Translations under genes and position numbers: made by a program
The notes under the pieces: generated by a model
What the model was told of the DNA's origin: nothing
The model's input: only the letters and a program-made list of their open reading frames with translations
The model's database searches: none
Shown: positions 2,116 to 60,360 of the stretch, piece by piece
Numbering within the stretch: position 1 is the stretch's first letter
Layout of the letters: each line of letters opens with the position of its first letter
From: an uncultured archaeon
GTDB lineage: Archaea; Thermoproteota; Bathyarchaeia; Bathyarchaeales; Bathycorpusculaceae
Direction of reading: 5' to 3'
Length of the DNA: 64,000 nucleotides
Assembly: GCA_963782915.1 (NCBI GenBank)
Contig: CAWALK010000023.1
Span: forward strand, 96,001-160,000

Positions 2116-4585
2116 TTAGTATTCTGGTTTTATGTATACTTGAGTTTGGGCGACTTGTCTGCCCTCAGCTTTTTCAGCTATTACTTTTATGTTTTCGATT
2201 TTTAGGGTTGCTGCGATGTCGATGGTTGCTTGGCGTATTGCGACGGCGGTGGCGTCGTCTGCGGTGTAGATGGTTAAGTTTTTGATGGGTGCGTTGAGTG
2301 AGAGTTTCTTTTCTGCTTTGTCGCGGCGGATTTCGCTCATTATGGCGGTGATTAAGTCGCCGTCTTTCTCAGCTGCCTCATCAACCAGTGAGGCGTTGAA
2401 CTTTGGCCATTGCGAAACCTGTATGCTCTTGTAGCCTTTGCCATCCATGTACATGTACTGATAGATTTCTTCTGCCATGTGTGGGGTGACTGGGGCGAGG
2501 AGTTGTAGCATGCGGTAGAGTACCTCATAGAGGGTGTGTTGTGCTGCGGCGGTGTTTGCTTTGCCGTAGACTTCGGGGCGGTATAATCTGTCTTTGATGG
2601 CTTCGACGTAGAAGTCGCAGAAGACGTGCCAGGTGAAGTTGCGGATTTCCTCTACTGCGATGTTGAATTGGCATTTTTCGTAGGCTTCGGTGACTTTTTT
2701 GGTGATGTTCTCGGTTTTGCTAAGGATCCATTTGTCGAGTAGTTGGAGGTCCATTTCGTCGCTGGCTTTTGGCGTATAGTTGCCCAGCAAGTTGCTTGCG
2801 AATCCGGAGGCATTCCAGAGTTTAACCAGGAAGCGTCTGCCGTATTCGACGTCTTGGGCGCGGTAGGGTATGTCTGAACCGGTTGCTCCTCCGCCTGCTG
2901 CCCATTGGCGGACTGCGTCGGCTCCGTACTTGTTGAGTGTTTCCGGTGCGGCAGCATAGTTTTTGAGTGATTTGCTCATTTTTCTGCCATCGGCGCCTAA
3001 GACCATGCCGTTGATGAGTACGCTGTTGAAGGGGCGCTCGTCGAAGAGTGCTAGGTGGCGTACCATGAGGTAGTATGCCCATGTGCGGATGATGTCGGTT
3101 CCGGATGGGTGTATGCTTGCCGGGATACAGGCGCTTCCAGTCCGCTCGGTCTGGCCAGCCAGCGTGGACGGCGCAGGTGATTGAGCTATCCATCCAAGTA
3201 TCCATAACATCCTGTTCGCCGCGGAAGTCTATGCCGCCACATTTGGGGCACTTCTCGATTCGTGGGCCCTCAAGCTTGGGGTCAATCGGAACCCAGCCTT
3301 CCTCCGCGATTATCATTTCGCCGCAACCCTTACAGAACCACACCGGGATCGGAGTGGCGAATAAGCGTTGGCGGCTGATTACCCAGTCCCAATTCAAGCG
3401 AATGCGCCCAGTCGATCAGGCGGTTACGCATGTAATCTGGGTACCAAGGTATTGCCTTAGCGTTCTCCTCAACTTTGTCAGTTAACTCCATGTTTTTCAT
3501 GAACCACTGTTTTACTTCGAGAATTTCGACGCCGGTCTTGCAGCGGTCGCAGACGCCGACTTCCTGCTGGATTTTTTCGCTCTTCTCAAGCAACCCAGCT
3601 TCGGTGAGGTCTTTGACTATGGCGGCTCGGGCTTGGTTAATGTAGAGGCCAGCGTATTTGCAGCCTGCCTCGCTAATTTGGCCGGTCTGGGTTATGAGGC
3701 GGATGACGGGGAGTTTGTGTTTTATGACCGTTTTTACGTCTTCCTTGTCGCCGTAGGTACAGATTTGCATGGCGCCAGTGCCGAATTTGGGGTCGACGGC
3801 TTCGTCAGTTATGATTGTGACTTCGCGGTTCATGAGTGGCACATTGATTTTTCTGCCAATGTATTTGGCGTAGCGTTCGTCTTTGGGGTTTACTTCGACG
3901 GCGACGCAGGCGGGGATGAATTCGGGGCGGGAAGTCGCAATCAGCAGGTACTCTTGCTGCCTGCGAGGTGGTATTTGATGTAGTGGAGCGTGCCCTCTTT
4001 TTTGACGTGGTCAACTTCTGCGTCGGCGATGGCTGTTTCGTCGCGTGGACACCAATTAACTGGATGTGTGCCCTGATACATGAAGCCCTTCTGGTAAAGT
4101 TGGATGAAGCTGAGTTGGGTGCGACGCCAATAGTCGGGGTCCATGGTTTTGTACTCTGTAGTCCAATCGATGGAGGCGCCCATTTTGAGGATGCCTTCCT
4201 TCATCATGGCAATGTATTTCTCGACCAGTTCGATGCACCAGGCGCGGAACTGGTCTGGGGGAACATCGCGTTTGCGGATGTTTTTGGCTTTTTCAACTTG
4301 GATCTCTATGCCTAAGCCGTGGCAGTCCCAGCCCTGCGGGAAGAGCACGTTGTAGCCTTGCATGCGTTTGTAGCGGGCTACCATGTCGAAGTACGTCCAG
4401 TTTAGGACGTTGCCCATGTGGAGTTCGCCTGAAGGGTAAGGCGGAGGCGTATCGATGCTATAGGGGACGCGTGATTTGTCGTTCCAGTCGTAGTGGTATA
4501 GGGCCATTTCTTCCCATTTGGCTTGCCATTTAGCTTCGATTTCAGTGAAATTGTAATCTTTAGGCATAGGCTGCATGAACATCAA
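2116..4585 (-). CDS. valS: Valine--tRNA ligase, split into 4 ORFs by indels (probable assembly errors)
   Basis: DTPPPYPSGELHMGN (HIGH), GWDCHG, DPKFGTG, WVISRQR, DTWMDSS, KMSKS, collinear across frames. Confidence 0.95.
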
Positions 4586-4753: not shown

Positions 4754-5161
4754 CTAAAAAAACTCTCTCGGAGTCAGTATGCTTGTTTTTTTGTAGCAGC
4801 CCAGTTTAAGAAGATGGTTATCTCCTGTTATAATATAGTCAGCTCCAGATGCTACAGCGCATTCTATTATCTTATCGTCTTCAGCATCTTCATCTATGAT
4901 ATGCAACTTTAACTTTGGTTTGACTATTGTTGAGTTGACTTCGATGGCGCGTAGGATTTCTTTTTGTTTTACATCCGCCTTTTGTAGGACGGTGGCGATT
5001 TTTGGGTAAAGGAGGACTTTAGAGATTTCAAGTAGGATGTCAGGACTAATGTAAATTGTTAGGTCCTGTTTTGCTTGGGAAAACTCGTCGCTTAGAACCT
5101 TTTTCATAAAGATTGAAACCCAAACGTTGGTGTCCAAGACTACTTTGACTTTCTTGCCCAC
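4754..5161 (-). CDS. PIN-domain toxin (VapC-like, PIN_3)
   Basis: VVLDTNV, DAEDDKIIECA, IITGDNHLL; overlaps upstream antitoxin. Confidence 0.9.
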   Translation of the reverse strand: MGKKVKVVLDTNVWVSIFMKKVLSDEFSQAKQDLTIYISPDILLEISKVLLYPKIATVLQKADVKQKEILRAIEVNSTIVKPKLKLHIIDEDAEDDKIIECAVASGADYIITGDNHLLKLGCYKKTSILTPREFF

Positions 5162-5403
5162 TCGACTGCCTCAGCCACAATCGTATCGACATCAATAGAT
5201 TCTTCGCTGGTTGCTTTTTCAACTTTGTTGGCGATGTCCTCGATGGAGCCTTCCTTTGTTTTTCTCAGCAGTATGTCTCCATTGCGGGTAAGTACCAATA
5301 GTTTTTCGCCGCTTTTTACTCCCATTTTTTTGCGTACTTCTCTGGGAATTACCACTTGGCCCTTAGCCGAAACCTTGATTATGTCCTCAATCTGCTCTGA
5401 CAT
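5140..5403 (-). CDS. AbrB/MazE/SpoVT-family antitoxin
   Basis: KVSAKGQVVIPREVRKKMGVKSGEKL. Confidence 0.9.
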   Translation of the reverse strand: MSEQIEDIIKVSAKGQVVIPREVRKKMGVKSGEKLLVLTRNGDILLRKTKEGSIEDIANKVEKATSEESIDVDTIVAEAVEWARKSK

Positions 5404-5571: not shown

Positions 5572-6344
5572 TCAGCATTTCTCACATGACTGCTTAGCCG
5601 TATTCCCACAGCATCTTGGATTATCAAAATAGTCACGACCAACCCGTATGATACTCTGGTCCTGAGTCAAAAGCGCAACCTCGTTTGGCCAATAGTAAGC
5701 GTCACAAGATTCTTCATGTCCGATATGAACATCGCCAAATTGCAGTATAGAACTCTAACTTCTCCGAGGTCTTTGAGGTCTTGGCTATCTGCGATTTCAG
5801 GAGTTACTGCGATGTTGAGTTTTACGCGGTGTTTTTCTTTGGCCTCTTTTAGGGCAGGATGGATTTCTTTAACTACCTCGGGCAAGGTCATGAACATTGT
5901 AATTTCCCGCTTAGACCCTTGAATCAGGAGTTTGAGGCGGTTAACGATGCTTTTTTGCCCACGCAGAATATATGCGATTTCGAGTTCCTCAGGCTTCTCC
6001 GCACTATCATAGATGGGCGTCAATTTGCTTATGATGACATCCGCCTGCTTCATCTTCCCATCTAACTCGTCTTTTAGTTGCTGTTTGAGGTTTGTGATTG
6101 CTTCGTTTGGTGCGATGGGGCGATAAATCGATGGGGTGCTCTGCTGTATGCTTATCATGCCTTTTTTGGATAGGCTGTCGAGTGCGTAGTAGATTTTTGA
6201 GTCTGGGATTTTGGTTTGGTTGCAGAGTGCGCTTGCTGTTATGTTGGGGTGGGTTAGGAGTGTGGTGTATGTTAGGGCTTCGTGGGTTGTGAGGTTGAGT
6301 TCTTTGAGTTGGGAGATTATTTGGTTTAGGGCGGTGTCTTCCAT
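5572..6344 (-). CDS. TrmB-family transcriptional regulator with Cys-rich C-terminal tail (frameshift near 5690)
   Basis: LTTHEALTYTTLL..IPDSKIYYALDSLSKKG wHTH; alternative frame continues NEVALLTQDQSIIRVGRDYFDNPRCCGNTAKQSCEKC* to 5572. Confidence 0.85.
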
Positions 6345-6392
6345 GGCGGGTTTTCTTCTTCTGGTTTCTGGTGAGTATGTGTGAGAAAACCG

Positions 6393-6425
6393 TTAAATAG
6401 TTTTCTACTACCAAAAAGTAGTAGA
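6393..6425 (+). promoter_or_regulatory. hgcA promoter: TATA-like box followed by perfect 8-bp inverted repeat (putative operator)
   Basis: TTAAATA at 6393-6399; TCTACTAC-CAAAAA-GTAGTAGA at 6404-6425, just upstream of the ATG. Confidence 0.6.
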
Positions 6426-6435
6426 GAATGAGAAA

Positions 6436-7482
6436 ATGAGTAAACAAACATGCGGATGCAGCACCGCCAAACCAACCACACAAACCCAAAAAACAGCAAC
6501 AAAAATACAGCCCACAACCTCCATCACGGGCAAAGTGGAACTAAAAGACCACATCCTCGCCCGCTTAGGAATCAACCGACAAAACCACACAGTAACCCCC
6601 GGATTATACTCACTGGGAAACCCCAACCCCAACACACCCGTCTTCGTAACCGCAAACTACACCCTAAGCTTCGACGCACTGCGCTCCTCGCTAAAAAACA
6701 AAGACGCCTACATCCTAGTCCTGGACACCATGGGAGTCAACGTTTGGTGTGCAGCAGGCAAAGGAACCTTCGGCACCGACGAATTATTAAGCAAAATCGA
6801 AGCCACCCATCTAGCCGATGTAGTCGCCCATCGAAAACTAGTTTTGCCCCAACTCGGCGCCTCAGGAGTCAACAGCTTCGAAGTTGAAAAGCAAAGCGGC
6901 TTCAAAGTCGAATTTGGCCCCGTACGGGCAGATGACCTTCCAGAGTACCTAAAAACTGGAAAAGCCACCGCAGAAATGCGGCAAGTAAAATACCCCCTAA
7001 AAGACCGAGCCGTGCTAATACCCGTAGAACTCAACTCGGCAATCCTTCCCCTCATTGTCTCAGTAATCGCACTGTACATTCTAGGCGGCGCCTATCCTGC
7101 AATCGCAGCTGCCACCGCAATCTTGGCGGGAACTGCCCTGTTTCCTTTAGCGTTGCCTTGGTTGCCAACTAAAGATTTCAGCTCAAAAGGTTTCATACTC
7201 GGTGGCGTCCTGTCGTTGCCTTTGGCTGCAGTGGCGTTCTTGAGTGCTCCAGCCTCGGTAATGTGGCTGCGGGTCGCGGCGGGTTTGGCTTACGTCTTGC
7301 TAATGGCACCAGTTACAGCGTACCTTGCACTAAACTTCACAGGCGCATCAACCTACACGAGTCGAACTGGTGTTAAAAAAGAAATCTTCCGCTACATCCC
7401 CGCCATGGCTGCCTCCCTGATAATCGGGACAGTTCTCGCAGGCATAGTCATTGGAATGCACTTCTTCGGAGGTGCAATATAG
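6436..7482 (+). CDS. hgcA: Mercury methylation corrinoid protein HgcA
   Basis: Cap-helix motif NVWCAAGKG, VTANY.LSFD.LR, LPQLGA.GV, FGPVRA.DLP, C-terminal TM helices with LNFTG.STYTS.TGV.KE; adjacent hgcB. Confidence 0.95.
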   Translation: MSKQTCGCSTAKPTTQTQKTATKIQPTTSITGKVELKDHILARLGINRQNHTVTPGLYSLGNPNPNTPVFVTANYTLSFDALRSSLKNKDAYILVLDTMGVNVWCAAGKGTFGTDELLSKIEATHLADVVAHRKLVLPQLGASGVNSFEVEKQSGFKVEFGPVRADDLPEYLKTGKATAEMRQVKYPLKDRAVLIPVELNSAILPLIVSVIALYILGGAYPAIAAATAILAGTALFPLALPWLPTKDFSSKGFILGGVLSLPLAAVAFLSAPASVMWLRVAAGLAYVLLMAPVTAYLALNFTGASTYTSRTGVKKEIFRYIPAMAASLIIGTVLAGIVIGMHFFGGAI

Positions 7483-7761
7483 ATGTTCAACTCCTACCAA
7501 GAAACCACCCTGCAATTTGACAAAGACAAATGCATCGGCTGCGGCAAATGCAGCACCGTGTGCCCACACAGAGTCTTTAGCCAAAATGGCAACAAGGCAG
7601 AACTCGTAAACCCGTCAGCATGTATGGAATGTGGCGCTTGCCAACTTAACTGCCCAGCAGGCGCAATAACCGTGGAAAGCGGCGTTGGCTGTGCTGGCGC
7701 TATGATTCGGGCGGCACTTAAGGGCGAAAAGCTTGATAGCGGCAACTGCAGTTGCGGATAA
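7483..7761 (+). CDS. hgcB: Mercury methylation 2[4Fe-4S] ferredoxin HgcB
   Basis: CIGCGKC..CPH.VF, diagnostic CMECGAC..NCP, GVGCA, C-terminal CSC; starts immediately after hgcA stop. Confidence 0.93.
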   Translation: MFNSYQETTLQFDKDKCIGCGKCSTVCPHRVFSQNGNKAELVNPSACMECGACQLNCPAGAITVESGVGCAGAMIRAALKGEKLDSGNCSCG

Positions 7762-8580: not shown

Positions 8581-9469
8581 CCTTTCTGAGGCTTTCTATT
8601 CCATAGATATCGGTGTCAAAGAGCGGTACGTCTTTTCTTAAGATAGTTTTGAATCTGGTTTCGATTTCTTTGAAGTACTTTTCTTGTGTTGCTCTTCGTC
8701 GTTCAAGAAACCAGTTGCCCTTGAGAACCTCTGGCGGAATAACCTCGTTAACAACCAGTGACGCTACGTTTATGCCAAATTTGGATAGATCGTCGATGGC
8801 TCGTGCTGTCTCCTCAATCGGCAACTTCTCGGGTAAAAGCACGAGGTTGAAGGCGGATATGGTTTCGTCCGAGAGGCTTTTCACAGCTTGGTCGTATCGC
8901 TGTTTTTCTTTCTTCAACCCTTCCAGCGTGCTTTCATCCACGCCGCCTAATGCTTCGGCGAGCTCTTTTCTGTTCTTGATTTGGTTAGTCATGTATCCCG
9001 ACCAATCAAACGGCATCGACAGCTCCCTGAGAGTATGTCCTGTGGGCGCTGTATCGAACACTACATGGTCATATTTTTTGTCGCCAAGATATGTTACGAA
9101 TTGGTCGAATGCCGCCATTTCTTCTGCGCAAGGGGTGCTGATGGCGTCTTTGCCAAGGATTTGGTCAAAGTTTTGCATCATGCCTTGGAGTCGGGTTTGG
9201 AAGATGCCTGTTGCTTTTTTGGGGTTGATGTTTAACCCGCAGAGGTTTTGGATCTTGTCTATTTTTGTGATTTCGGTTTCTCCTATTTTTTGTTCATAGG
9301 TTGCTGAGAGGCTCACTGTTGGGTCGGTTGCGACGATTAGGGTGTCGTAGCCTTGGTCGGCTAGCCAGACGGCTGTTGAGGCTGCCATGGTTGTTTTTCC
9401 TACGCCTCCTTTGCCGCCGAAGAAGAGAAATTTTCGGTTTTCTATGAGTTTTTTCATTTCTTGTGTCAT
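8555..9469 (-). CDS. arsA: ArsA/GET3-family ATPase (single domain)
   Basis: GKGGVGKTT P-loop, TDP, PCAEE (metalloid-site Cys), FDTAPTGHT signature. Confidence 0.85.
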   Translation of the reverse strand: MTQEMKKLIENRKFLFFGGKGGVGKTTMAASTAVWLADQGYDTLIVATDPTVSLSATYEQKIGETEITKIDKIQNLCGLNINPKKATGIFQTRLQGMMQNFDQILGKDAISTPCAEEMAAFDQFVTYLGDKKYDHVVFDTAPTGHTLRELSMPFDWSGYMTNQIKNRKELAEALGGVDESTLEGLKKEKQRYDQAVKSLSDETISAFNLVLLPEKLPIEETARAIDDLSKFGINVASLVVNEVIPPEVLKGNWFLERRRATQEKYFKEIETRFKTILRKDVPLFDTDIYGIESLRKVGKHLYDQ

Positions 9470-9484
9470 ATATCGGTCACACCA

Positions 9485-9533
9485 ATATCGGATAAACCGA
9501 TATGCTTATAAGATTTCGTGTCGGTATCCGATA
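9485..9533. promoter_or_regulatory. Divergent promoter with two TCGG..CCGA inverted repeats flanking a palindromic TATA
   Basis: ATATCGG-ATAAA-CCGATAT (9485-9503), CTTATAAG (9505-9512), TCGG-TAT-CCGA (9521-9531). Confidence 0.55.
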
Positions 9534-9545
9534 GTGGTCAACACC

Positions 9546-10289
9546 ATGCAATCGCCCTCATCCGAAATCGCAGGCAACCTGCAAGCCAAAATAATGATGT
9601 TACTGCGAGAAGAGCAACTCTGCGGCGTAGACCTAATGAAGCGGTTAAAAATCAAAAGCCCCGGCACAATCTACCCTGTACTCGAGGCACTTAGAACAAA
9701 AGGCTTAATCGACTTCAAAATTGAAACCTCAGGCGCAGTCCGTAAAAAAGTCTATTCTCTGACAGAGACTGGCACCCAAAAGATGCAAGACCATCTGACC
9801 AGTTCAATGAAATTTTGCTGCGACACCTCCGAGCATATCAACCGAATCCTCGGTATTGTGAAGGAACTTATAGAGATCAAACGCAAAGAAAAAGTACTCT
9901 CAACCTTAGACCATGACGAGTTGAAACGTTACCTCAAAGCAGCGGACGTAACCTATTCAAGTGATCTGCAGGTTCCGGCTGGAACATTCGATAAGGCGTT
10001 GAGCTTTTTGGGCGTTGGCTGCTTAATCGGCAACGAAACCTCAGACATCGCCAACTATGTAAAACAGCTCTACCTAAGCTTGAAGAGAGGCGGGGTTTTG
10101 TTGGCGATTGAAACCCAGAAAACAGATAACATGTTTAGCCAAATCCTCTTCGAAGACGTTTTTGGATTAAAAGAGCCACCTGGATTACCCCTTGACGAGT
10201 TAAGGGCTGTTTTGGAGAAAGCGGGGTTCACCAATGTATCGGTTACGGCGAATATGGGTCTGCTCTTTGCTGTAGCACAAAAACCTTAA
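9546..10289 (+). CDS. PadR-family regulator fused to a degenerate class I methyltransferase-like domain, with CC motif
   Basis: SPGTIYPVL..L...GLI..RKKVYSLTETG; FCCD linker; C-terminal LKRGGVLL..ELRAVLEKAGF typical of the SAM-MTase fold. Confidence 0.75.
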   Translation: MQSPSSEIAGNLQAKIMMLLREEQLCGVDLMKRLKIKSPGTIYPVLEALRTKGLIDFKIETSGAVRKKVYSLTETGTQKMQDHLTSSMKFCCDTSEHINRILGIVKELIEIKRKEKVLSTLDHDELKRYLKAADVTYSSDLQVPAGTFDKALSFLGVGCLIGNETSDIANYVKQLYLSLKRGGVLLAIETQKTDNMFSQILFEDVFGLKEPPGLPLDELRAVLEKAGFTNVSVTANMGLLFAVAQKP

Positions 10290-18655: not shown

Positions 18656-20636
18656 CTACTTGATTCGTTCTAACCTCAGAGTGTTGAGCAGTAGGAGCAT
18701 GGTTAAGCCGTCGTCGCCTGCCGCAACCGTAAACCACAGCGGCGTCAACCCCAAAAAGCCAAGTGTGCCTAAAACGAATTTTATGATTAGTGAGCCTGCG
18801 ATGTTTTGTTTGGCGATTACCATGGATTTTTGGCTCAGCTTGATTAGGTAGGGGATTTGTGCGAGTTCATCTTTTACCAACACTACATCCGCCGACTCCA
18901 AGGCGACGTCGACGCCTCGTGCACCCATTGCGATGCCTACATCTGAAGCTGCCAGTGCCGGAGCATCATTCACGCCGTCGCCGACCATTGCGACTAAGCC
19001 GTCTTTGCCCTTCATATCCTCGATGCACGCTAACTTGTCTTCGGGGAAAAGCTCAGAGTGCACATCATCAATCCCCAACGTGTAAGCGATTTCGTTGGCA
19101 ATCTCAGCCTTATCACCCGTTAACATTGCAGTTTTAACATTCTGCTTCTTTAACGCGTGAATGGACAGTAGGGCATCTTCTCGAACCTGATCAACAACGC
19201 AAACTGCAGCCAAACCCGTCTTGCCAACGGCAATACAAACAGCGGTGTGGGCGTCACCTGCCGCAATTTCAAAAGCCTCCGTGCAGTCGCAGCCAAATTC
19301 GCGCATCAACTCCACGTTACCAATAGCTACATGTTTACCGTTCACCATGCCGACTATGCCTTTGCCCGGAACCTCAATAACACCCGTCACCTCTACTTTG
19401 CTGAGATCAATGCCTCGCTCCATTGCTTTTCGCACGATGGCTTGTGCAATAGGATGGTTAGAAAACTGGTCGAGAGCCGCAGCATAAGTTAGGGCTTCAT
19501 TTTCGTCTTTAGTTGTATCCGGTCGCCTAATTTCGTGTACTGCTTGGCGCCCAAGAGTTAGAGTTCCGGTTTTGTCAAAAACAACGGTTTTTACTTTTGC
19601 AAGTTTTTCTATGAATACTCCGCCCTTGATGATTACACCTCTTTTAGCAGCCACAGTAATCGCTACAAAAATCGTTGCCGGAACAGAAATGATGAACGCG
19701 CTGGGACAGGACACCACCAGCAGCATCAGTGAACGGTAGAACCATGTTTCAAATCCTCCGCCAGCGATGTAGGGCATCGCAAGAGCAGTGAAAACCGCCA
19801 ATACGATGACTATGGGCACATAGATTTTTGCGAACCTATCCACCAAACGTTCAATGCCTGCTTTTCGTTTCTGTGATTCAATAACAAGCTGCACGATGCG
19901 GGATACGAGGGTTTCAGTGGATTTCTTAGTAACCTCGATTTTTAGGACGCCGCCGGTGTTTAGGGTTCCGGCGAAGACACAGTCGTTGACCCGTTTGGGT
20001 ACAGGCACCGATTCACCCGTCACCAAGGCTTGGTCAACATGCGAGAAACCGTCGGTAACATTGCCGTCCAAGTGGGATGCGTTCGCCGGGTTTAACAAGG
20101 ATGATTGTGCCTGTTTGCACTTCGGTTACGTTGATGCTTTCTTCTTTACCAGCGGCTAAGACGCGTGCTTTCTCCGGGATAACTTTGGAGATTGCCTCTA
20201 CGGTGCGTTTGGCTCTTTCTTGGATGTAGCCTTCAAAGTATTCTGCGATGCAGTAGAGGAACAGTACCGTGGCGGCTTCAAAACGGTAATCCAGTGCTAA
20301 GGCGCCTAAGCCTGCGACTGCCATGAGGAATTCTACGCTGAATCTGCGCTCGACAACGAGTTCTTTTAAGCCCACTACGCCGATGTAGATAGCTGCAGTC
20401 AGCACCGCAACGTAGTAGAGTATCAAGGATACGGTGGCTGGGAGGTTGATGATTGGGATTGTGAAGCCCAATGGGATGCCCTTGAAGAATATGTCCATTA
20501 TGCCTGCTACTAGGATTGTTAGGCCTAACCAAACGGCGAAGCCAACGAGTACCTTTTTGTTTTCTTCTTCTTCACCGATTACGGTTGTTTGCGGTTTTGG
20601 TTCTGGTTTTTCTTCGCAGGTTCCCATAACAATCAA
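18656..20636 (-). CDS. Heavy-metal P1B-type ATPase (frameshift near 20090)
   Basis: TGES, SCPS (CPx), DKTGTLT, HP, TGD, GDGVNDAP. Confidence 0.92.
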
Positions 20637-20701
20637 ACTTTCAAAGGCACATTTTTGATATTAAGTTAGTGCTAAATCGCTATGCAAAAATATTAGTTAA
20701 C

Positions 20702-20728
20702 TATTAACAGTAAACTAAAATGTTAATA
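20702..20728. promoter_or_regulatory. Inverted repeat, putative NikR operator
   Basis: TATTAACA-N11-TGTTAATA between divergent ATPase and nikR. Confidence 0.55.
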
Positions 20729-20736
20729 AAAACCTA

Positions 20737-21147
20737 ATGGTGAACCAAACGACAGTAATCAGCATAACCCTACCACCCGAACTGCTACGGAAATTCGAAG
20801 ATTTCATGCAAACCAAAGGTTACTACAGCCGCTCAGAAGCCTTCCGCGACGCCGTCCGAGGCTTAATCTCAGAATCCGAATTAGCAGTGCTCAATTCAGA
20901 GAATGTAGCCGCCACGATTATGGTAACCTGCGATTACGAAAGAAAAGACGTTGACCTAAAGATGACCGAGTTGCGCCACGAATTCGACGATGTAGTCATC
21001 GAAAATGTGCATCGGCATATCGGTGAGAAGTATTGTTTGGAAATCTTCATTGCTCAAGGCAATAACAGCAGAATTTTGAATTTGGTTAATCGGTTGCGTG
21101 GGATGCATGGGATTTTGCAGGTTAAATCCATGTTCATGATGCTCTAA
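20737..21147 (+). CDS. nikR: Nickel-responsive regulator NikR family (RHH + ACT)
   Basis: ISITLP.ELL..F....GY.SRSEA.RDA.R; H..HxH...CLE Ni ligands. Confidence 0.88.
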   Translation: MVNQTTVISITLPPELLRKFEDFMQTKGYYSRSEAFRDAVRGLISESELAVLNSENVAATIMVTCDYERKDVDLKMTELRHEFDDVVIENVHRHIGEKYCLEIFIAQGNNSRILNLVNRLRGMHGILQVKSMFMML

Positions 21148-29742: not shown

Positions 29743-31324
29743 CCTAAGAAGCGGACCAGATAGATTCTGTTCCCCATCCACCCATTATAGTCACCCCAGA
29801 AGGGTTGATCCAATGGGTCTCCGAAGCGGTCGGTCGAGTAGATCAGTTGTTAAGACTTGTACATAGTCGAGTGTTGTATTGAAGAATTCTTGATGGATGC
29901 CGTAGTCGTAGAGGATTATGTATTTTACGTTGCGTTCTTGGCAGAGCTGGACGAATTCGGTTTTGTTGAAGTTGGGTGTAAAGGCATCAACGGCTAATGA
30001 GGGGTACTGCCAGATTTGGTCAGCCGTCATGTTTGCCGGTAGATAGAAGCGGAACATGTCTTGGCTTAGCAGATTGTATGAGCAGACTAATACGGCGGAT
30101 TGGTTGCGGGTGAGGTTGCCTGCGAGGTATGCGGTTGCTTCTTTGATTGGGAGGTGCAGTTGGTCGCGGCTGGTCATTTCGTAGGCGTTGTAGCCACTGT
30201 AAGCGACTGCGACAGCGATTATGGCGATGAAGGATACGGATGCCAGTTTCTTGAGTTGGGCAGCGTTTAGGTGTATTGGTTTTGGTTTCCAGCGTTCCAG
30301 TCTGCCATAGAGGAACATCACAAAAGACGCCGCCGAAATCCCCAAAATAGGAAACAGTGGGGTGACATAGCGCCATTGCCGATTAGAAATCAACGTAAAA
30401 AACCCATAAACTACCACAAACCACGTCAAAAAGAAGATGTCCTGCTTTTTTCTGCGATAAGCAAACAACCCCAATCCGGCCAAACCCAAAATGAAGATGG
30501 GCAATGATATCGGATGCACGGGGATGTCGTTGAATGGCCAGGTCATTTCGACGAGGTAGTAGACGGGGATGGGTTGGAAGCGGTTGCTATACGCTGGTCT
30601 GTCTTGTCCGCCTTCACTCATGACGTATTGGATGGTTTCGAATTTGGTCATGCCGTTATAGTGGTAAATCATACAGGAACCATGGGGCAACAACCAAAAC
30701 AACGATGACTATGATGACTATGAATTTTGCTAAGTTGAGTTTCAAACGTTTTCGGGCCAAAAACAGTATGCTTAACAGCATAGCCAGGGCGGCGACGATG
30801 ATCTGGTACTTCGCCAACACCCCGATGCCCAACGCTAACCCGCATAAGACTAACGCGCGGTTGCTGCCGTCCTTATTGAGCCATGTGTAGAAGGCAAACA
30901 TGACCAGTGTAAAGAAGAAAATCAGCATCGTTTCAAGCATGGTTACGCGGCTGAGCCAGAAGAACCCCGGCATCGTACCCAACAGAACCGCTGCGACAAG
31001 CGCGTTTTTTGGGCCGTAAGTGCGTTTGGCGAATTCAAAAACCAACCAAATGGAGAGCGCTGCAAAGGTTACTGCGACCAGTCGCCCCGCAACTTCGTTA
31101 ACGCCGAAAACCGCGAAGAAACCCGTGGTTACAACATCGAATATGGGCGGGTAATACGCGTAGGTGGTCATGTAGCCCCATGAATCGCCGCGGCTAAGCA
31201 ATGTGGCGCCGAATAAGTGGGGCATCTCGTCCCATTGCACCGACATGTAACCTAAACTGTAAGTCGAAGCAACGATGAAAACTACTAGAAAAGCAAGCAA
31301 CGCCAAGTAGTACTTGTATTTCAT
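29739..31324 (-). CDS. Glycosyltransferase family 39 (ArnT/PMT-like) membrane protein, frameshifted
   Basis: WDE..H, YPP, GRL, LGIG.L.KY, RY..PL.P; many TM helices. Confidence 0.82.
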
Positions 31325-31515
31325 CAAAAAACTTCGCTGAGGCTGCTGGCTGATGCTGCTTGTTTGGGTAATGTTTAGCGACCCCTCTTTCGGGTCAAAG
31401 ATTAGTGGTCTGCATCTAAAAAGAGTTTGCACATCATCCGCCGAAAACCGTGTCTCCGTGTATAAATGCGGAAATGATTTATGCATAGAAACATTTGATT
31501 CCATCTTAGTCCAAA

Positions 31516-32253
31516 TTGGGGTGGTACCGCTTAGTGACAAATCAGTCTGTGAAGGAAATTTCGATTCTGTTGCCCGCGTTTAATGAGGCATCGCAGATTG
31601 AGCAGTGCATACTCGAAGTCGAAGCCGCTGCGCGGTCACTGAGCAAATCTTATGAAATAATCGTGTCGGAAGACGGTAGCACAGACGGCACAGACACCAT
31701 CGTTTCGAAGATGGCTAAGTTTAACCCAAACATTGTCCTACTCCACTCAACCACGCGATTAGGCAAGGGCAAAGCCATCAAAAACGCGGTTAACTCTTCA
31801 AGAGGAAAAATCGTCACCTTCATGGATGTGGATTTAGCAACTGACCTTGCATGTTTACCTAAACTACTAGACGTAGTCCATCAGAAAGGCGGCATGGCTA
31901 TTGGGTCCAGACACATCGAAGGCTCAAACGTTCAACGTCACGCAAAAAGGACGCTTTTCAGCTTAACATACAATGCCCTCGTTCGGATGCTCTTTTTCGA
32001 CGGCGTTCGCGATCATCAATGCGGCTTCAAAACCATGCCCCGCAACGTCGCAGCGGCAGTCCTCAACAGTTCCCGCTCAGACGGCTACTTCTTTGACACA
32101 GAAATGATTGTGCGCTGCAAACAACTCGGCTACCCCGTCACCGAAGTGCCTGTGAATTGGCAGGAGAAGAACAAGGGTGGCTCAAAAGTTAATCCCGTTC
32201 GGGATAGCAAAAAAATCTTTAAAGATATGCTTTCTTTTAGGCTAAATCTTTAG
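31516..32253 (+). CDS. GT2 dolichyl-phosphate glycosyltransferase-like
   Basis: PAFNEA, EDGSTDGT, GKGKAI, FMDVD, GSR, DHQCGFK, FDTE. Confidence 0.9.
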   Translation: MGWYRLVTNQSVKEISILLPAFNEASQIEQCILEVEAAARSLSKSYEIIVSEDGSTDGTDTIVSKMAKFNPNIVLLHSTTRLGKGKAIKNAVNSSRGKIVTFMDVDLATDLACLPKLLDVVHQKGGMAIGSRHIEGSNVQRHAKRTLFSLTYNALVRMLFFDGVRDHQCGFKTMPRNVAAAVLNSSRSDGYFFDTEMIVRCKQLGYPVTEVPVNWQEKNKGGSKVNPVRDSKKIFKDMLSFRLNL

Positions 32254-40631: not shown

Positions 40632-42442
40632 CTAAAATAACAAAAAGGGGAAAAAGTTTTGGTTGCTTCTAACGGAAGAGGGCAAATATTCCGTTGAAGC
40701 GTGCCCAACTGAACCATGTGAACCAGTGGTGGGAGTGGTAGTTGTGGGTTGGTGGTAGGGTTGGAATTGTGGTTGTTGGTGCTGGGGTTGGTGTTGTTGT
40801 TTGTGTGGGTGCTGGTGTTTGTGTTGGGTTGGTTGTTGGTTTGGGTGTTGTGGTTGGTGTGGGTGGGGTTGTTGGGTTGGTGGGGTTGGAGTTGCTGTGG
40901 GGGTTGGTGTTTTGGTGGGTGTTGGGGTTGGTGCTATGGTTGGAGTTGGTGTTTGTGTTGGTGTTGGTGTTGGTGTTACGAGTTGGTGTAGGCTGTTGGG
41001 GTTGGTGTGGGTGTTGCGGTGGTGAGGTGTAGGTGTTACTGTTGGTGTAGGTGTTACTACTGGAGTGCCTGCTGTTGCTTTGTAGGCGTCGATGTAGTAT
41101 TGCCCCATAGTGTTTGGTGAGTAACCGCTGCTAAGCATGGATTCTCCAACGTAGACTCCGCCTAAACCTGAGTCGCTAAGCCAATAGTATGGTCCAGCGC
41201 CAATGTTTAGATCACGTTGGCAACTACCAAGTTCTTCCACCATGTGTAGTCGTTTTGTTTGTTTGGTGAGCTTGCTAGACATGAGCCTTCTTCGTTAACC
41301 ACTAATGGAGCGGTAACGCCCATGCTGTTAATGCCTGTTTGTAGTTGAGTTTTGAGTCCTGCGTAGTCTTTTGCCCAGTATGAGCTGAAGTCGCTTGGTG
41401 CATAGTAGTAGAAGTGTGTAGTGTATACTAGGTTGGTTGGGTGGATTGCTTTGTCGATTTGGCCTGCGAATGCCAAGTTGTTTCCATAGCCGTTGGGGAA
41501 CCAGCCCATGTGCCATTGCATCATGATGAGGTTGTTTGAGCCTGTTTCACGGATTGCATTGTACATGGTTGTTAGGTAAGTCATGTAGCCTGCTGGGATT
41601 GCGTCGACGTCGCTGCCAACGTTTGGTTCGTTCCATGCTTCAAAGATTGCGTTTGGGCAATCCTTCAAGTTGGTTGCCATGTCGCTCCAGAACCAGCTCC
41701 AGAAGCCTTGCTCGTTGTTGCCGTATCCTGCGTCGCTTAGGAATCTTGTTGCTGCGTCATCCCAGCCGCTCATTGGCATTCCTTGCCAACCGAAGTTGCT
41801 GGTTGCGTATTGGTCTTTGTCAAAGCTGCTTGAGGATGGTGTTAGCATGTATGGTACTATGTCAACGTAGATTCCGTATTTGTCTGCTTCTTGGCATAGA
41901 GTTTTCAAGTAGCCTTTCACGCTGATTGGGGTTGTTGAGCCTGAATAGCTTGAGCTTTCCTGTGCTGGAACGATGTTGTCTCGGTAGTACCAGCTTGGGT
42001 AGACAAAGACGCGGATCATGTTAACGTGCCATTGTGACTGCATTGCAGCAAAGGTTTGATCCATCACTGTTGTGGGGTTATAGTTCCATTGGTTACCCCA
42101 ACTGTCGCTGCTTCCTTGACCCCAGAGCAGTAAGTCTGGAGCGAACCCAGCGATTCCCATACCACGGAGGTAAACGGTGTTGCCGTTTGCATCCAGAATA
42201 TAGGATCCTGAGGTGTGCAGCGAAGAAGTGGTGGCTGCCTCTGCTGATGGCGTTGCAAACACTGATAGCATGCTGATAATGAACAGTGCGCTTATGCATA
42301 TTACAAGGGGTTTAGAGAATTTTTTTATGCGTATTGAATGCAGAGTTTTTCCGAAGTATTTTGTATTCAAGTTTTTTCTCTCTTCCTGAATTTTAGTTTC
42401 CTTATCGGTAGGATCAATTTTATGGGTTTTTGAAAACTGCAA
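40632..42442 (-). CDS. Secreted glycoside hydrolase family 5 (cellulase-like) with Pro/Thr-rich tail; frameshifted
   Basis: LH.SG..I.DANG..V.LRG, NMIRV, FE.WNEP (acid/base), H.Y, V.EEG (nucleophile). Confidence 0.85.
40740..41060 (-). repeat. Low-complexity (Pro-Thr)n linker-coding repeat
   Basis: GGTGTT/GGGGTT arrays encoding TPTPT on the minus strand. Confidence 0.85.
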
Positions 42443-46320: not shown

Positions 46321-47891
46321 TTATTCAACCTTTTGAGTTTTGGTTTTGCGTGTCCGCTTTGGTTTCTCGGTTTGGGCTGCTTGGGTTTCTTCTGGTTTAG
46401 GTTCTGCGTTTTTAGTTCTTGGAGTTCTTTTTGGCTTTGTAGGTTTCGGTGATTCGACTGGTACTTTGGGCTTCAATGATTGCAGGTTGCGCTTCTACGT
46501 TTGTTATTTCGACAGGCTTCTCTTGTTTAGGCGTTACTGCTTCAATAACTGGTGTTGGTTCTGGCACTGGGTGGGTGCTTCCTCGACTGGCTGTGGCATC
46601 TCCGCTGTTACCGTTTGCGGGGGTTCTGTCGGGGTGGGCTGAGCTGGTTCTGGTGTCTGTGGTTGCTCTGGAATAGGCAGTTCTTCGGGTTTTGCCTGAT
46701 CTGGAACAAGTAGCTCCTCTGGTTTCGCCGGCTCCGGGGTTGCTGGTGCCTCGATAACATCTGGTTCTTCCTCAACTTTAAACGGTAACTGCCAATCCTC
46801 AGTCATCAAACCCCTCTCAACCGCTGCACGTTTGAGCGACGCAACTTTCGTCTCCAACTCCTCAAACATCTTGGAGGTATCAAATCCGCCGATGAATAGC
46901 ACTGCGTCGATGCGGTCACTCATGTCTTCGGTGTAGATTGGTTCGGATATGTGGATGGATTGGGGGCTGGTTTTTTCTTTAAACCAATCTGTTATTGATA
47001 ACTCAATTTTTGCCCTCGGAATCTTATCTTTCAGGTTGGCTGGCATGCGTAGGAGTACATAGAGTAGTGTTGAGCTGGATAAGTCAAAGGTTGAAAGTGG
47101 TTTTAGCAGGGCAGTGTCGAGCATATTCTCTATTGAACCATACACGCGGTAACTGGCTGCTGTAACTGCTAATGGCACTGAAGAGTTTAACGTTAAAGGT
47201 GCGGGATAACTCGCTGATTTCCTGCACAAGCGACTCCTTAGCCAAAAACATGTTAAGCATGTAATTGACTACGCTGTTGCCCTTGATTTGAACGCCACTC
47301 TTGTCTACGCCCTCAAAAGTTTCAAGTTGATCTCTACCCAAAAGCACAACTGTGGAGCCTTCTGTTGCCATGCACATTTGCAGTGTGGCATAGGCGTTGA
47401 AGTGGGCGTCTGCTGGCTGAATTTTAGATGGCAAAACTGCTATGGAGAGTGAATCGATGCTTTGCCTATTAAATTTGCTTATTAGGCTTGGTAGGGCGGC
47501 GCTGCCAACTCCATCCCAGACGGAAGCGAAAACTATGGCTCCGCGAAGTCTCTCTGCTGAGCGCTTCTTTAAACTATCAATAACCGATTTGTCCCGTATG
47601 ATTGTTGGGAGTACATTGGTACCAGAAGTGAGTATCGATGTCTGCATCTTCAAAACCCAACACCAAATGCGGGTCATAACCCTTGGGTATCCACTTGTAG
47701 ATGTCATCGCTTGATTTTTCAATAAAAATCGGCAACGTACCATCTCTACTAACGGTTGGTTCTCTTAGCAGCGCCTTAATTGGGTATTCACCAATACAGA
47801 CGATAGCTTGTTTAGGAACCAGAGGTTTTAGCTCTTCGATGTGTTTTTCGATGCTAACTAGGATGTTAAAAGCGTTTTTGCTATCTTTCAT
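46321..47891 (-). CDS. Degenerate tubulin/CetZ-like protein with Pro/Glu- then Lys/Arg-rich tail (several frameshifts)
   Basis: IVCIGEY (T1-like), FASVWDGVGSAALP (T4-like), IAVLP, NAYATL, VVLLGRDQL, ALLKPLSTFDLSSS.LLYVLL, RAKIE...WF, AVLFIGG in tubulin-fold order. Confidence 0.65.
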
Positions 47892-51743: not shown

Positions 51744-53698
51744 TTGGTTAAGCATGTAAAGCGAACAATTGCACAATTTCTTCTTTTTGCGGTTGCAATT
51801 TATTTGATATCGTTTGTTACACCGGGGCTCTATATTAGCAACTTTTTCTCCGGATTGCTTTTTACGATGTTGTCTGCGTTCTTGATTTTTCTTCTTTGGC
51901 CTCTACTTTTGAGGTATCTAGAGCGTTTTCTGGTTTTGACCTTTGGATTGGGCTCTTTTGTATTGAGCACGCTTATTTTATGGTTGGGCAGTCTTTTGAT
52001 TCCGGGTGTAACGATTAGTGGTTGGGGTTGGATATTTGCCCCTATAACCGTCGCCGTTGCTAGTGCGATTGTTACTGTGGTTCTAAATATTGACGACGAT
52101 GACGTTTATGCTCGTTCAGTCTACTCTCATCTTAAACGTCGAACAGAAAAGGGTAAACTCGAAGATAAAACTGGGAAGCCAGGGTTTGTTTTCTTGGAAA
52201 TTGACGGTTTATCCGAAGCGGTTCTTAGGCTGGCAATAGATAAAGGAAAAATGCCCTTCCTCGCCGATTTGGTCAAAAAAGGTAGCCATACGATTAGAGG
52301 GTGGGAAACTGATCTTTCCTCTCAAACAGGTGCAAGCCAAGCAGGCATACTTCACGGTTGTAACAAGGATATTCCTGCTTTTCGCTGGGTAGATAAATCC
52401 ACTAACAAAATTGTATCGTCAAACGGTATTGGCGATGCACCCATGATTCAAGCCCGGATTTCTAACGGTAATGGTTTGCTCTCAGTTAATGGGGGAGCGG
52501 TTACGAATCTCTTCACGGGTGATTCTAAGGATAATATCTTTGTGTACAGTGTAGTGAAAGATATCAAGCAATTATACAGTGAATCATGGAGCGCGTTTTA
52601 TACTCAGACCTTACAATTTTGCAAGAGTTTTCGTTCTGGCTTTGTTAGACATGATTTTTGAGGTCAGGTCACGTTACAGACAATCGAGACAAAATATTCA
52701 ACCTCGACTTCATCGGCGTGGACTAAAGTATTTTATTGGACGTGCGGGAGCAAATGTGATTTTAAGAGAAATAAGCACCTACATCTTAGTCGGCGACATC
52801 ATCGCCGGCGACAAGGATGTAGTTTATTCAACCTATTTTGGGTATGACGAAATCGCCCATCACTGCGGAATAACTGATGCTGAAAGTTTTTACGCTTTGC
52901 AAAAGCTTGACCACCGAATAAGCAGAATTTTCGCCGCACAAAAATACAGTAAAAGACCCTATAACATCTGTATTCTTTCGGATCATGGGCAAACAAATGG
53001 TGCTACCTTCAAGCAACGTTTCGGCTTAAGCTTAGATGAACTAGTCAAGAGACTCTTGCCTGAGAAAGAAACAATCTATCAGGGAACTAGATTCAAACCA
53101 GGATCATTTTTCGCAAATGATAACCGCTCCCAGCGATACAGTTAACCGTAAACTAAAACCGCACTCTAAAGAGAAGAAACAAAAAAGTGCACAAGCCATC
53201 GTTTTAGCATCAGGCAACCTTGGTTTAATTTATTTCACCCGATGGCCCCAGCGAATGACTTTAGATGAAATAAATGCAGTTTACCCCGAAATGGTTGATG
53301 GCCTAAAAAACCATGAGGGGGTAGGGTTCATTATGTTAAGATCAAAAGCAGATGGCCCAATAGTGCTGGGGAGAAAAGGCACGTATTACCTTAATAGTAA
53401 TAGGATTGAGGGTGAAAATCCCTTGGAGAAATTTGGAGAACACGCTGCCTCGCATCTTTTAAGAACCGACAGCTTCAAGTTTTTGCCTGATATTTTGGTC
53501 ATGAGCTTATACGACTCTGAAAAAGATGAGGTTGCTGCTTTTGAGGAACTCATAGGTAGCCATGGTGGGCTTGGAGGCGGTCAGTCTAAACCATTCATTA
53601 TGTATCCATCGGAGTGGCGTTTGGCTGATGATGAAATTGTTGGGGCTGAGAGCGTCTATAAAGTATTCAAGCAATGCATGGAGAAATCGACAGGGTAA
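51744..53698 (+). CDS. 4-TM holin-like domain fused to alkaline phosphatase/type I phosphodiesterase domain (frameshifted)
   Basis: LTFGL 4TM domain; EIDGL, SSQTGASQAGILHG, GYDE.AHH, SDHGQ, ASGNLG, FEELIGSHGGLGG. Confidence 0.85.
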
Positions 53699-58994: not shown

Positions 58995-60360
58995 TTAATC
59001 TACGAGTTTTTTGCGGCCTTCTTCAATCAACCGCACTGTTTCGGCACGCCATGGCTCAAAGCCTTCAGGTGTGCTTGGATAGGTGTTGTAGTGTGCGCTT
59101 AGTCCCTTCATCATGGTGACGGTTGAGTGTAGCTTGTTGAGGAAGCCTACTTTGCGTATGCCGCGGAAGACACGTTTTGCGGTTTCGGTGATGTTTAGGT
59201 GGAAGTCGTCGCCCATGCCTGCTTTGAGTACGTCGTCTTCGGTCATGAGTTTCTGGTTCATGCCATAGTTAAGGTCCTCATCACTGCATGATAGCAAGAA
59301 CATTTTGAAGATGTCAAGTGTGCCCTGTTTTTTGCCGTAGGTGTCGATGTATTTCTTGTTGTAGCCCCAGAGTGCTTCTCTTGTGGGTTCGCCCTTTGAG
59401 AGTGCTTCAACGATTTGTTGGCCTGCAAAGTAGCCTGATAGCATTGAGGGACCGATGCCGCCGCCGTGAATTGGGTTAACTAATGATGCTGCGTCGCCGA
59501 CTAGCATGACACCGTTGCCGACCATGTTGTCTATTGGTCTGCGGACTGGGTCAAACCATGCGCCGCCGGTTAGGACTAGTGAGCCATCGAAGATTGGCTT
59601 CTTGAATGCGGTTGCATAGAGTTGCTCTTTGGGGTTAGGATAGCCGGTTTTGCGCATGCAGGTGCCGATGCCCACGTTTACGCGTGCGCCGCCTTTGGGG
59701 AAAATCCATACGTAGCCGCCTGGTGAAGCTTTTTGGTTGAGGTAGATTTCGCAGAAGCGGGTGTTTTCTGTTTCTTGTTTAAGTTGGCGGATTTCTCTGT
59801 AGCATGCTTCTACGTCTTCGTTTTCTACGTCGCGGTCTATGCCTAATTCGGCTGGGAGCTGTTTGCGGACCATGCCAAAGTAGCCTGTTGCGTCAACGAC
59901 GACTTTGCTGCGCATCTCGGACGACTTGGCCGGTTTTCATATTTTTAGCGGAGATTCCGGCTACTGCGCCTTTCTCGATTATTGGGCTGCGGAAATTCAT
60001 GTTATCCTGTAATAGTGCTCCGTTGTCGGTGGCTTTTTTGAGTACCCATTGCCCGAATAGGCGTCTGTTGAGTAGGTAGCCGACGAAGTCTTTGTCTGCG
60101 ATGGTGAAGACGGTGTTTTCGTCTGGGGAGTAAATTTTTATGCCGTCGATTTTGGTTTCTAACTCGCCGCCAGTAGGTTTCTCAAGCCCCAAGAATTTGA
60201 GGTGGTGCTCGCCTAGGGCGTCTCCGCAGATTTTTTCTCCGATTTCGGTTTTTGGTTTCTTTTCGACTAGACAGACTTTTAGGCCTTTTTCAGCTATGGT
60301 TTTTGCTGCAAGGCAGCCTGCTGTTCCTGCGCCGACAACTATGGCGTCGTATTTTTCCAT
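58995..60360 (-). CDS. Geranylgeranyl reductase family (DGGR-like), frameshifted
   Basis: YD.IVVGAG.AG, K.CGD, DATG, GY.WIFPK, VGDAA..VNP..GGGI. Confidence 0.92.

Follow-up and report, generated by a model that had tools for sequence, protein, structure and literature searches.

In a 64,000-nucleotide stretch of DNA from an uncultured archaeon of the Bathycorpusculaceae (the window; positions 96,001 to 160,000 of contig CAWALK010000023.1, assembly GCA_963782915.1), a gene for a short TrmB-type regulator on the minus strand (start codon at 6344) was found to face the mercury-methylation genes hgcA and hgcB on the plus strand across a spacer of 91 bp, and this spacer holds a perfect palindrome, TCTACTAC-N6-GTAGTAGA. 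Judged by its sequence, the protein belongs to the TrmB family and to none of its characterised groups; it is proposed as a member of a new subfamily, the Cys-tailed TrmBL2-like regulators, which is marked by a GIPDSKIYY helix, Cys201, a (D/E/S)(N/S)Px-CC tail and an upstream CTACTAC-N6-GTAGTAG site of the gene's own. All four marks were present in the window when a one-base gap in the gene was read through. The palindrome is close to certain to be the cognate site of the family. We lean towards reading the protein as a dimeric repressor of TrmBL2 fold which acts on a bidirectional promoter and is released from it by a thiol-binding metalloid, probably As(III).

Regulator protein and its operator

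Homologues of the regulator were searched for among 5.8 billion proteins (E ≤ 1e-5); 443 were obtained, the full-length ones listed having 242-315 aa. The closest, P0001, has 257 aa and is 99% identical to the protein of the window, which with the gap read through also has 257 aa and carries the C-terminal end DNPRCCGNTAKQSCEKC; outside the break, the two differ in only 2 amino acids. Residues 13-79 of the regulator were matched by Pfam PF01978 (62.3 bits, cut-off 25.6; profile positions 1-67 of 68), for which P0001 scored 59.2 bits. P0001 also matched PF11495 (24.5 bits, cut-off 22.2), over profile positions 4-125 of 233 only; the open reading frame (ORF) of the window as assembled gave 21.0 bits, under the cut-off. 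By this match only the first, phospholipase D (PLD)-like subdomain of PF11495 is present and the sugar-binding subdomain is absent, as in TrmBL2. The original prediction, which was made from the letters of the window alone, had spoken of a TrmB scaffold put to a new use, and this wording has to be given up as far as sugar binding is concerned, since a protein of the short TrmBL2 build has no subdomain for it. The NCBIfam equivalogs for TrmB, TrmBL1 and TrmBL2 gave 43-66 bits against cut-offs of 500-650, so that neither the sugar-sensing ones (NF040851, NF047390, NF047392; 42.8-66.5 bits) nor the one for TrmBL2 (NF041141; 44.8 bits, cut-off 530) were reached. Pfam searches listed no match to the ArsR-type helix-turn-helix family PF01022, either for the window ORF (up to E 0.01) or for P0001 (up to E 0.001). 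Homologues carried generic database names ('sugar-specific transcriptional regulator TrmB', 'helix-turn-helix domain-containing protein'), and the family was small: among the 50%-identity representatives of 1.84 billion proteins, 41 matches were found at E ≤ 1e-30 out of 7174 TrmB-like proteins at E ≤ 1e-3.

An AlphaFold2 model of P0001, for which 117 homologues were used as input, had a pLDDT of 90.2 and consisted of a winged helix-turn-helix (wHTH; helices 2-60, wing 64-76), a long helix (79-114) and an alpha/beta domain (124-241). In Foldseek the best matches were TrmBL2 structures (5bpd, 5bqt and 5box; E ~5e-14, 21% identity, full length over 260 columns), followed by TrmB (3qph, 6e-9); the C-terminal domain alone was matched to PLD-fold nucleases. 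A dimeric state is supported by the model: the homodimer prediction reached an ipSAE interface score of 0.63 against 0.22 for the best control, runs agreed on at least 94% of contacts, the partner pLDDT was at least 85, and the predicted interface was helix 79-116. Proteins solved as one-chain pairs attained this ipSAE value in 20 of 30 cases, and those known as single chains in 1 of 23; as solved TrmB and TrmBL2 dimers exist, the pass may reflect likeness to them, and Zn was included, unlike in the calibration.

The order of wHTH, long coiled-coil helix and PLD-like domain is that of TrmBL2 and TrmB (PF01978 plus PF11495; 5bpd, 5bqt, 3qph), and the build of ~260 aa is that of TrmBL2, which has 264 aa and is without the sugar-binding part according to the available portion of PMC4158304. 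Unlike TrmBL2, to which it is 21% identical, the regulator is by its context no chromatin protein, with one dedicated operator per genome; unlike the sugar-sensing TrmB and TrmBL1 (~340 aa), it has 257 aa and lacks the second half of PF11495; and unlike short TrmB-like proteins that are free of cysteine, it has Cys201 and a C-terminal CC.

C41 and C201 were invariant in the 117 close homologues (117/117), C245 was Cys in 103 and C246 in 110 of them, and the distal C254 and C257 were Cys in 19 and 27. In a broader set of 79 proteins from four phyla, which takes in members from Thermoplasmatota, Nitrososphaerota and Asgard archaea at ~30% identity, C201 was kept in 78, C245 in 74 and C246 in 70 proteins, and C41 in 55 only (Val in 16 of 20 Thermoplasmatota rows). 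The universal set is C201 plus the vicinal pair C245-C246, which comes immediately behind the final helix as part of the motif (D/E/S)(N/S)Px-CC; a second Cys was present two residues past C201 in 30/79. In the group nearest the window (P0001-P0036), 27 of 33 tails had an extra Cys after the CC and 19 a CxxC, as compared with 3/79 for the rest. Of the two motifs whose conservation in homologues had been at issue, the CC is kept, and the distal CxxC, with 19 and 27 of 117, is no feature of the family. The CC tail ended with family membership at ~1e-32 (50%-identity representatives); proteins beyond this value had YFxYLW ends and GGG in place of C-x-C around residue 201.

The operator (6404-6425) is a perfect repeat of TCTACTAC (6404-6411) and GTAGTAGA (6418-6425) spaced by CAAAAA; it ends 10 nt upstream of the hgcA ATG (6436) and abuts AGAAAAC, a heptamer resembling the transcription factor B recognition element (BRE), of the regulator's own promoter. 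It is the sole zero-mismatch match in the window (0.12 matches with at most 3 mismatches expected; 2 matches were reached by 0 of 100 shuffles), and perfect CTACTAC-N6-GTAGTAG occurs once in the 3.28-Mb genome. A wider regulon was considered and rejected: the 1-mismatch sites at C18:198532 and C22:76752 lie inside long ORFs, are without TATA context and were taken as chance matches. The shared core promoter (6384-6406, both strands) has TTAAATA (6393-6399; TATTTAA on the minus strand) between AGAAAAC (6384-6390) and GTTTTCT (6400-6406); these BRE-like heptamers form an inverted repeat around the TATA box, the same being seen in several loci, and the arrangement suggests one core promoter firing both ways. 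The repeat was found where it had originally been placed, between the TATA-like box and the start of hgcA. The TACT-N7-AGTA reported within it is indeed contained (6406-6409 / 6417-6420), but it was dropped as a functional unit; the symmetric unit is TACT-N10-AGTA, set in 8-nt arms, and the conserved pattern is CTACTAC-N6-GTAGTAG. From the TATA centre (~6396) plus ~26 nt, transcription of hgcA is predicted to start at ~6422, in the right arm. As only 10 nt separate operator and ATG, the start of any hgcA transcript that arises in the 91-bp spacer must lie at the operator or ahead of it.

For comparison, 80 loci from species-representative genomes and 3 from metagenomes were collected, the operator being counted in 80 loci with at least 100 nt of upstream sequence. 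CTACTAC-N6-GTAGTAG with at most 2 mismatches in 14 positions was present upstream of the regulator in 66/80 loci, and the rest of the same loci held 2 matches in 789,521 nt; operator-bearing loci span Bathyarchaeia, Asgard archaea, Thermoplasmatota and Nitrososphaerota. The distance from operator to regulator start was 80-86 nt in Bathyarchaeia and Asgard archaea and 98-99 nt in Thermoplasmatota. The operator was aligned in all five hgcA-linked loci compared (5/5), and AAAACTATTTAAG, the BRE-plus-TATA towards the regulator gene directly beside it, was nearly invariant in homologous loci. It is this phylogenetic footprinting that leaves little doubt about the palindrome as the site of the family. 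The recognition helix GIPDSKIYYAL was almost invariant over the sampled clades, and the two clades with a changed helix or wing (S49T plus Q-to-R; Y53R) were those with deviating operators (CTACTTC...GGTGGAG; 3-mismatch sites). In one Bathyarchaeia clade (L023, L028, L033, L034, L036 and L048) the operator is changed to TCTACTTCC-N-TGGTGGAGA; its members have S49T and, in 4 of 5 members aligned (not L034), the Gln-to-Arg exchange in the wing. This clade is a natural specificity variant, useful for finding the residues that read the operator.

The operator shares its palindromic form and a TACT core per arm with the sites of TrmB, TrmBL1 and Tgr, and its position relative to BRE/TATA fits their logic, by which a site downstream of BRE/TATA represses and an upstream one activates (available portion of PMC4158304). 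As CTACTAC-N6-GTAGTAG it is distinct from the TrmB-family motifs TACTN3AGTA, the Thermococcales glycolytic motif (TGM) and TACTN7-8GAGTA. A second inverted repeat, CTACTTACTAGAAGTAG, was observed ~40 nt upstream of the regulator start, between TATA box and GGAGG, in many loci (L012-L055) in which the regulator is linked to a carboxymuconolactone decarboxylase (CMD)-like or transmembrane (TM) protein. It may be a second site with shorter spacing; as it is not kept in the hgcA-linked clade, it was left out of the model.

Gene partners of the regulator family

In the window hgcA (6436-7482, plus) encodes the corrinoid protein of mercury methylation (NCBIfam NF040863, 413.1 bits, cut-off 275), and hgcB (7483-7761, plus), directly after it, a 2x[4Fe-4S] ferredoxin matched by Pfam Fer4 families. 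The hgcA start MSKQ(T/S)C is kept in L009, L010 and L093, where hgcB is 80-98% identical. The genes after hgcAB encode an ArsN2-like GNAT protein (89.9 bits, below the cut-off of 125), a thioredoxin-like protein and a half-size ArsA/GET3 ATPase; the same set follows hgcAB in L093 and L098.

Partners were counted by tblastn with representatives on the divergent strand upstream of the regulator at 82 loci, 67 of them with full flank. An ArsM-like methyltransferase was found within 1.7 kb on that strand at 43/82 loci (38/67 with full flank). The other partners were a small AhpD/CMD-like CxxC protein with a C-terminal CGC (33/82), a small membrane protein (15/82), a nitroreductase with an SCC/GCC motif (8/82) and hgcA (3/82). 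Typical of Bathyarchaeia, Atabeyarchaeia and Hodarchaeia is a regulator facing the string CMD-ArsM, with or without a TM gene in front; in further strings the regulator faces a nitroreductase gene followed at some remove by ArsM, or ArsM itself (Thermoplasmatota, Heimdall/Hod). The ArsM of L041 reached 342.9 bits for the NCBIfam arsenite methyltransferase (cut-off 263), and the best match of the CMD protein was the AhpD domain of 'arsenite methyltransferase/AhpD domain selenoprotein' (E 1e-8, far below the model cut-off). In a Heimdallarchaeota locus (L052, 801-4564), a regulator homologue of 38% identity, with an operator of 2 mismatches, is faced by one string on the divergent strand made up of arsM (2790-3716), hgcA (1094-2047) and hgcB (801-1049).

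In a quick IQ-TREE tree, from which L010 and L048 were omitted as frameshifted or short, the hgcA-linked regulators P0001, L009, L093 and L095 formed one clade (Shimodaira-Hasegawa-like approximate likelihood ratio test, SH-aLRT, 100); this clade falls inside a group of 36 rows (support 92), and the remaining members of that group face CMD or TM genes. True hgcA was present in 8 of 401 genomes of the class, that of the window (G000) included; all three genomes of the window's genus (G000, G038 and G157) had the regulator and a perfect operator facing hgcA. The four hgcA genomes of other families were without the regulator, and in two of these four a MazE-like ORF flanks hgcA (L100, L102); the eighth hgcA lies on the short contig L113, described below. 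The predicted pairing of a TrmB-type regulator with hgcA is real in that the regulator faces hgcAB, and it is confined to one small clade. MazE-like matches near hgcA were also seen in L009/L099.

A sensor of thiol redox state or disulfide stress, governing a thiol-repair and detoxification regulon that drew in ArsM-like genes and hgcAB, is the alternative that survives best, though we regard it as unlikely. Its model is OxsR of Haloferax volcanii, a TrmB-family thiol-based regulator acting via a Cys disulfide; in the available part of PMC9426492 it is described as a 14-kDa single-domain protein whose C24, at the dimer interface, forms a disulfide between the subunits; its motif is CG-rich, its regulon is one of oxidative stress, and the place of the motif relative to BRE/TATA decides between activation and repression. 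Like OxsR, the regulator has a TrmB-family wHTH and cysteine as its proposed sensor, and redox-type partners are at hand in the AhpD/CMD-like CxxC protein, the SCC/GCC nitroreductase and the thioredoxin-like gene of the window. Unlike OxsR, it is a two-domain protein with a Cys trio in its C-terminal part; its palindrome is AT-rich and its target is arsM or hgcAB. The three cysteines are found in the C-terminal domain and the tail and do not belong to the confident dimer interface, whereas that of OxsR lies at the interface; the commonest partner is ArsM-like, the AhpD match is to a domain fused to ArsM in known selenoproteins, and ArsN2-like and ArsA-family genes are present in the window. 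The As(III) sites of ArsR proteins are made up of three cysteines including a vicinal pair, and a vicinal pair plus a third Cys, as found here, is the usual form of such a site.

Further gene arrangements were noted. At 4754-5403 (minus), beyond the regulator, an AbrB/MazE-like ORF (5140-5403) overlaps an ORF with a PIN domain (4754-5161) to give a VapBC-like pair. Against NCBIfam NF040962, 'HgcAB-associated protein HgcC', the AbrB-like ORF scored 42.8 bits (cut-off 70), and it was rejected as a regulator of hgcAB because of this low score, its pairing with a PIN gene and its location away from the hgcA promoter. HgcC, a small DNA-binding gene of AbrB/MazE type beside hgcA, was proposed as the regulator of hgcAB in archaea (Methanomicrobia) by Zhang et al. 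2023 (PMC10349881, as far as available); the regulator described here is of a different fold and family, and the AbrB-like ORF of the window shares no promoter with hgcA. At 9387-10289 (plus), a 300-aa ORF with a PadR-type wHTH (residues 69-134) and a long C-terminal extension lies divergent from the ArsA-family gene; it is kept beside an ArsA-family gene in L009 (63% identical) and may be a further regulator of the ars-like neighbours. A NikR-like gene (20737-21144, plus; NikR_C E 1e-19) lies divergent from a heavy-metal P-type ATPase gene, and the two are a second pair of metal regulator and target in the window (18659-21144). Elsewhere in the class, nine Bathyarchaeia genomes (L104-L112) encode HgcA-like corrinoid proteins of 156-175 bits, under the HgcA cut-off of 275, with an ArsM/CpaM-like methyltransferase before and an HgcB-like ferredoxin after them and without regulator or operator; this is a different corrinoid methyl-transfer module. 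A GC-rich contig of 2.7 kb (L113, G355:C117:1-2738) carries an ArsR-like gene (CCC motif), then arsM, then hgcA; it looks bacterial and is probably a contaminant, foreign to its Bathyarchaeia bin, and its gene order parallels the one seen in archaea.

Frame break in the regulator gene

As assembled, the regulator gene runs on the minus strand from the ATG at 6344 to a TGA at 5669-5667 (gene 6344-5667) and encodes 225 aa that end in ...VTLTIGQTRLRF. The first frame (5692-6344) reaches from the ATG to T217 (5696-5694) plus bases 5693-5692 of a broken codon 218; the wHTH (residues 13-79), the long helix for dimerisation (79-114) and the first part of the C-terminal PLD-like domain are encoded here, as are Cys41 (codon 6224-6222) and Cys201 (codon 5744-5742). 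One base off, the translation of the window continues as ...WPNEVALLTQDQSIIRVGRDYFDNPRCCGNTAKQSCEKC and a stop, down to 5572. This second frame (5572-5691, minus) extends from W219 (5691-5689) to C257 and a TGA at 5574-5572, and contains the codons of Cys245 (5613-5611), Cys246 (5610-5608), Cys254 (5586-5584) and Cys257 (5577-5575). P0001 is collinear over the break (...VTLTMWPNEVALL...DNPRCCGNTPKQSCEKC) and reads ...VTLT-M-WPNEVALL... across it; the second frame is collinear with P0001 and with all full-length homologues listed. The hidden Cys-rich tail that had been suspected beyond an indel is borne out by the second frame and by the intact 257-aa P0001, which agree. By comparison with P0001, the missing base is the G of an ATG before TGG, so that the indel, formerly placed 'near 5690', is one lacking base exactly between 5692 and 5691, and is to be regarded as a probable fault of the assembly. 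In two public runs, contigs of relatives, ~93% and ~96% alike to the window over aligned pieces, have an extra C behind 5691 (plus strand) at depths of 4.9 (X3) and 3.9 (X6).

At least five further frame breaks were found in conserved genes of the window, which makes at least six in 64 kb with that of the regulator, a pattern typical of indel errors left uncorrected. The valyl-tRNA synthetase gene (2119-4585, minus) is in at least four pieces (NF009687 profile 3-207 / 246-395 / 462-796 plus PF00133 230-328) and is the only one in the genome, the next-best matches being 35% and 30% identical. The gene of the heavy-metal P-type ATPase (18659-20636, minus) is split at ~20040-20100 (TIGR01525 1-90 / 89-560), and that of digeranylgeranylglycerophospholipid reductase (58998-60426, minus) at ~59900 (NF041080 1-142 / 144-447). 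Overlapping ORF pairs on the same strand at 29794-31540, 40635-42442, 46537-47743 and 52579-53695 may be more breaks of this kind. The assembly seems to carry ~1 indel error per 10 kb. Because conserved genes, the sole valyl-tRNA synthetase among them, are broken as well and because relatives' contigs contain the missing base, the break in the regulator gene is very probably an assembly artefact and the gene intact in the organism; the TGA at 5667-5669, which cuts the protein at 225 aa, is most likely the product of the indel. A programmed frameshift was rejected, as the junction is read in a single frame in homologues and breaks are numerous elsewhere in the window.

A true pseudogene in the strain of the window is improbable. 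Its product of 225 aa would stop short of the final strand and helix and of the CC tail, and hgcAB would escape its control and be constitutive. The stop at 5669-5667 does stand in the assembly as given, and no run was found with this strain that contradicts it: among the 24 public runs listed none contained the source reads, the best share of words being 0.19. The rest of the gene is nevertheless 99% identical to an intact homologue, the relatives are intact, and the other breaks, at least five, are in conserved, partly essential single-copy genes of the same 64 kb, which points to assembly error. The stop at 5667, which the original prediction had named as one of the findings that would speak against it, is unlikely to be genuine, with full-length homologues listed running through it, the base held by relatives' contigs and other breaks nearby.

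Proposed mechanism and its meaning

From the observed family membership, fold, conservation of cysteines and operator, and gene neighbourhoods, we infer DNA binding, the direction of regulation and the effector as follows. A regulator dimer would bind TCTACTAC-N6-GTAGTAGA in the 91-bp bidirectional promoter. As the operator lies over the expected hgcA start, the bound regulator would block RNA polymerase and repress hgcAB, and its position abutting the BRE of the regulator's own gene would lead to autoregulation. Repression of hgcAB is likely, and like the action on the own promoter from beside the BRE it is derived from the rule that holds for TrmB, TrmBL1 and Tgr sites. Cys201 and Cys245-Cys246 may together bind a soft metalloid through three thiolates, As(III) or methylarsenite being the likeliest, and loading with metalloid would free the protein from DNA and turn on the divergent operon. 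The ancestral and commonest target would be an arsenic-methylation module encoding an optional small membrane protein, an AhpD-like CxxC protein and ArsM; in the genus of the window, hgcAB would have taken the place of the arsenic module at the same promoter. A metalloid as effector is plausible, at about an even chance, and the idea gains support from the same regulator and operator usually facing an ArsM-like gene (43/82). The TrmB-type metal(loid) sensor over hgcAB that had originally been put forward is supported in this way by cysteines, operator and arsM context, with a putative effector.

An ArsR-like regulator of hgcAB in Pseudodesulfovibrio mercurii ND132 responds to arsenic (10.1101/2022.10.17.512643, in the part available). 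With ArsR/SmtB repressors the protein shares a wHTH, a predicted dimeric state, a place near arsenic genes and hgcAB and three conserved cysteines including a vicinal pair, the metal site being a prediction here; unlike them it is from an unrelated family, has a second domain and is archaeal, and unlike the ND132 regulator its gene is divergent from hgcAB and not co-transcribed.

Several findings weigh against this reading. An operator with at most 2 mismatches was absent from 14/80 loci, and 12/67 full-flank loci had none of the five partner types. Five other ArsM-like partners tested reached 157-246 bits, under the cut-off of 263, and could methylate something else. A redox regulon would account equally well for the AhpD-like, nitroreductase and thioredoxin-like partners. 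No Cys was among the confident residues of the dimer interface. The regulator is beside hgcA in only 3/8 true-hgcA genomes of the class sample of 401, and the lack of source reads described above belongs to the same side. Least probable of all is that the cysteines are structural (Zn or Fe-S) and that an effector of the S-adenosylhomocysteine (SAH) or S-adenosylmethionine (SAM) type in the PLD-like domain couples methyltransferase operons to methylation state, for although the ND132 regulator answers to SAH besides arsenic (10.1101/2022.10.17.512643, in the part available) and both main partner types, ArsM and HgcA, are methyl-transfer enzymes, the regulator is unrelated to ArsR/SahR (no PF01022 among its Pfam hits), the operons that begin with a nitroreductase or membrane protein do not begin with methyltransferases, and nothing in the sequence suggests a nucleotide pocket, the C-terminal domain resembling catalytically unrelated PLD-fold nucleases by fold alone.

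Carried over to the family, the metalloid-released repressor would make these proteins an undescribed pan-archaeal group of sensors for As(III) or soft metalloids on a TrmBL2 fold, an analogue of ArsR with a frozen operator, which governs arsenic methylation and was recruited twice to hgcAB: once as arsM-hgcAB in a Heimdallarchaeon and once to hgcAB alone in one Bathyarchaeia genus, where extra tail cysteines are present. We give this wider reading, both recruitments included, slightly less than an even chance. A TrmB-type regulator linked to hgcA, arsM or arsenic was not found in the full-text literature by titles and abstract starts, a search to which subscription journals did not belong; we rate the protein as a regulator of TrmB fold in which both the sensing device and the regulon are new.

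Mercury biogeochemistry still asks how the expression of hgcAB is controlled and what HgcAB is 'for'. Among regulators of hgcAB, the only one that has been tested is bacterial, ArsR-like and arsenic-responsive, and the sole proposal for archaea is an AbrB/MazE-like gene. The locus described here adds a third regulator, unrelated to these two, whose operator is unusually clear and open to testing; protein and 22-bp site are small enough for electrophoretic mobility shift assays, footprinting and biosensor work. The relatives give a genomic bridge between arsM and hgcAB, including one operon that holds both. If the proposal is true, the TrmB family, which so far has covered sugars, chromatin and one redox sensor, would gain a metalloid-sensing branch. 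There would then be a candidate arsenic regulator for the Bathyarchaeia and Asgard archaea of wetlands, peat and sediments, habitats in which methylmercury and methylarsenic are formed, and evidence of an independent, archaeal kind for placing HgcAB physiologically in the metabolism of metalloids (arsenic) and not in that of mercury as such.

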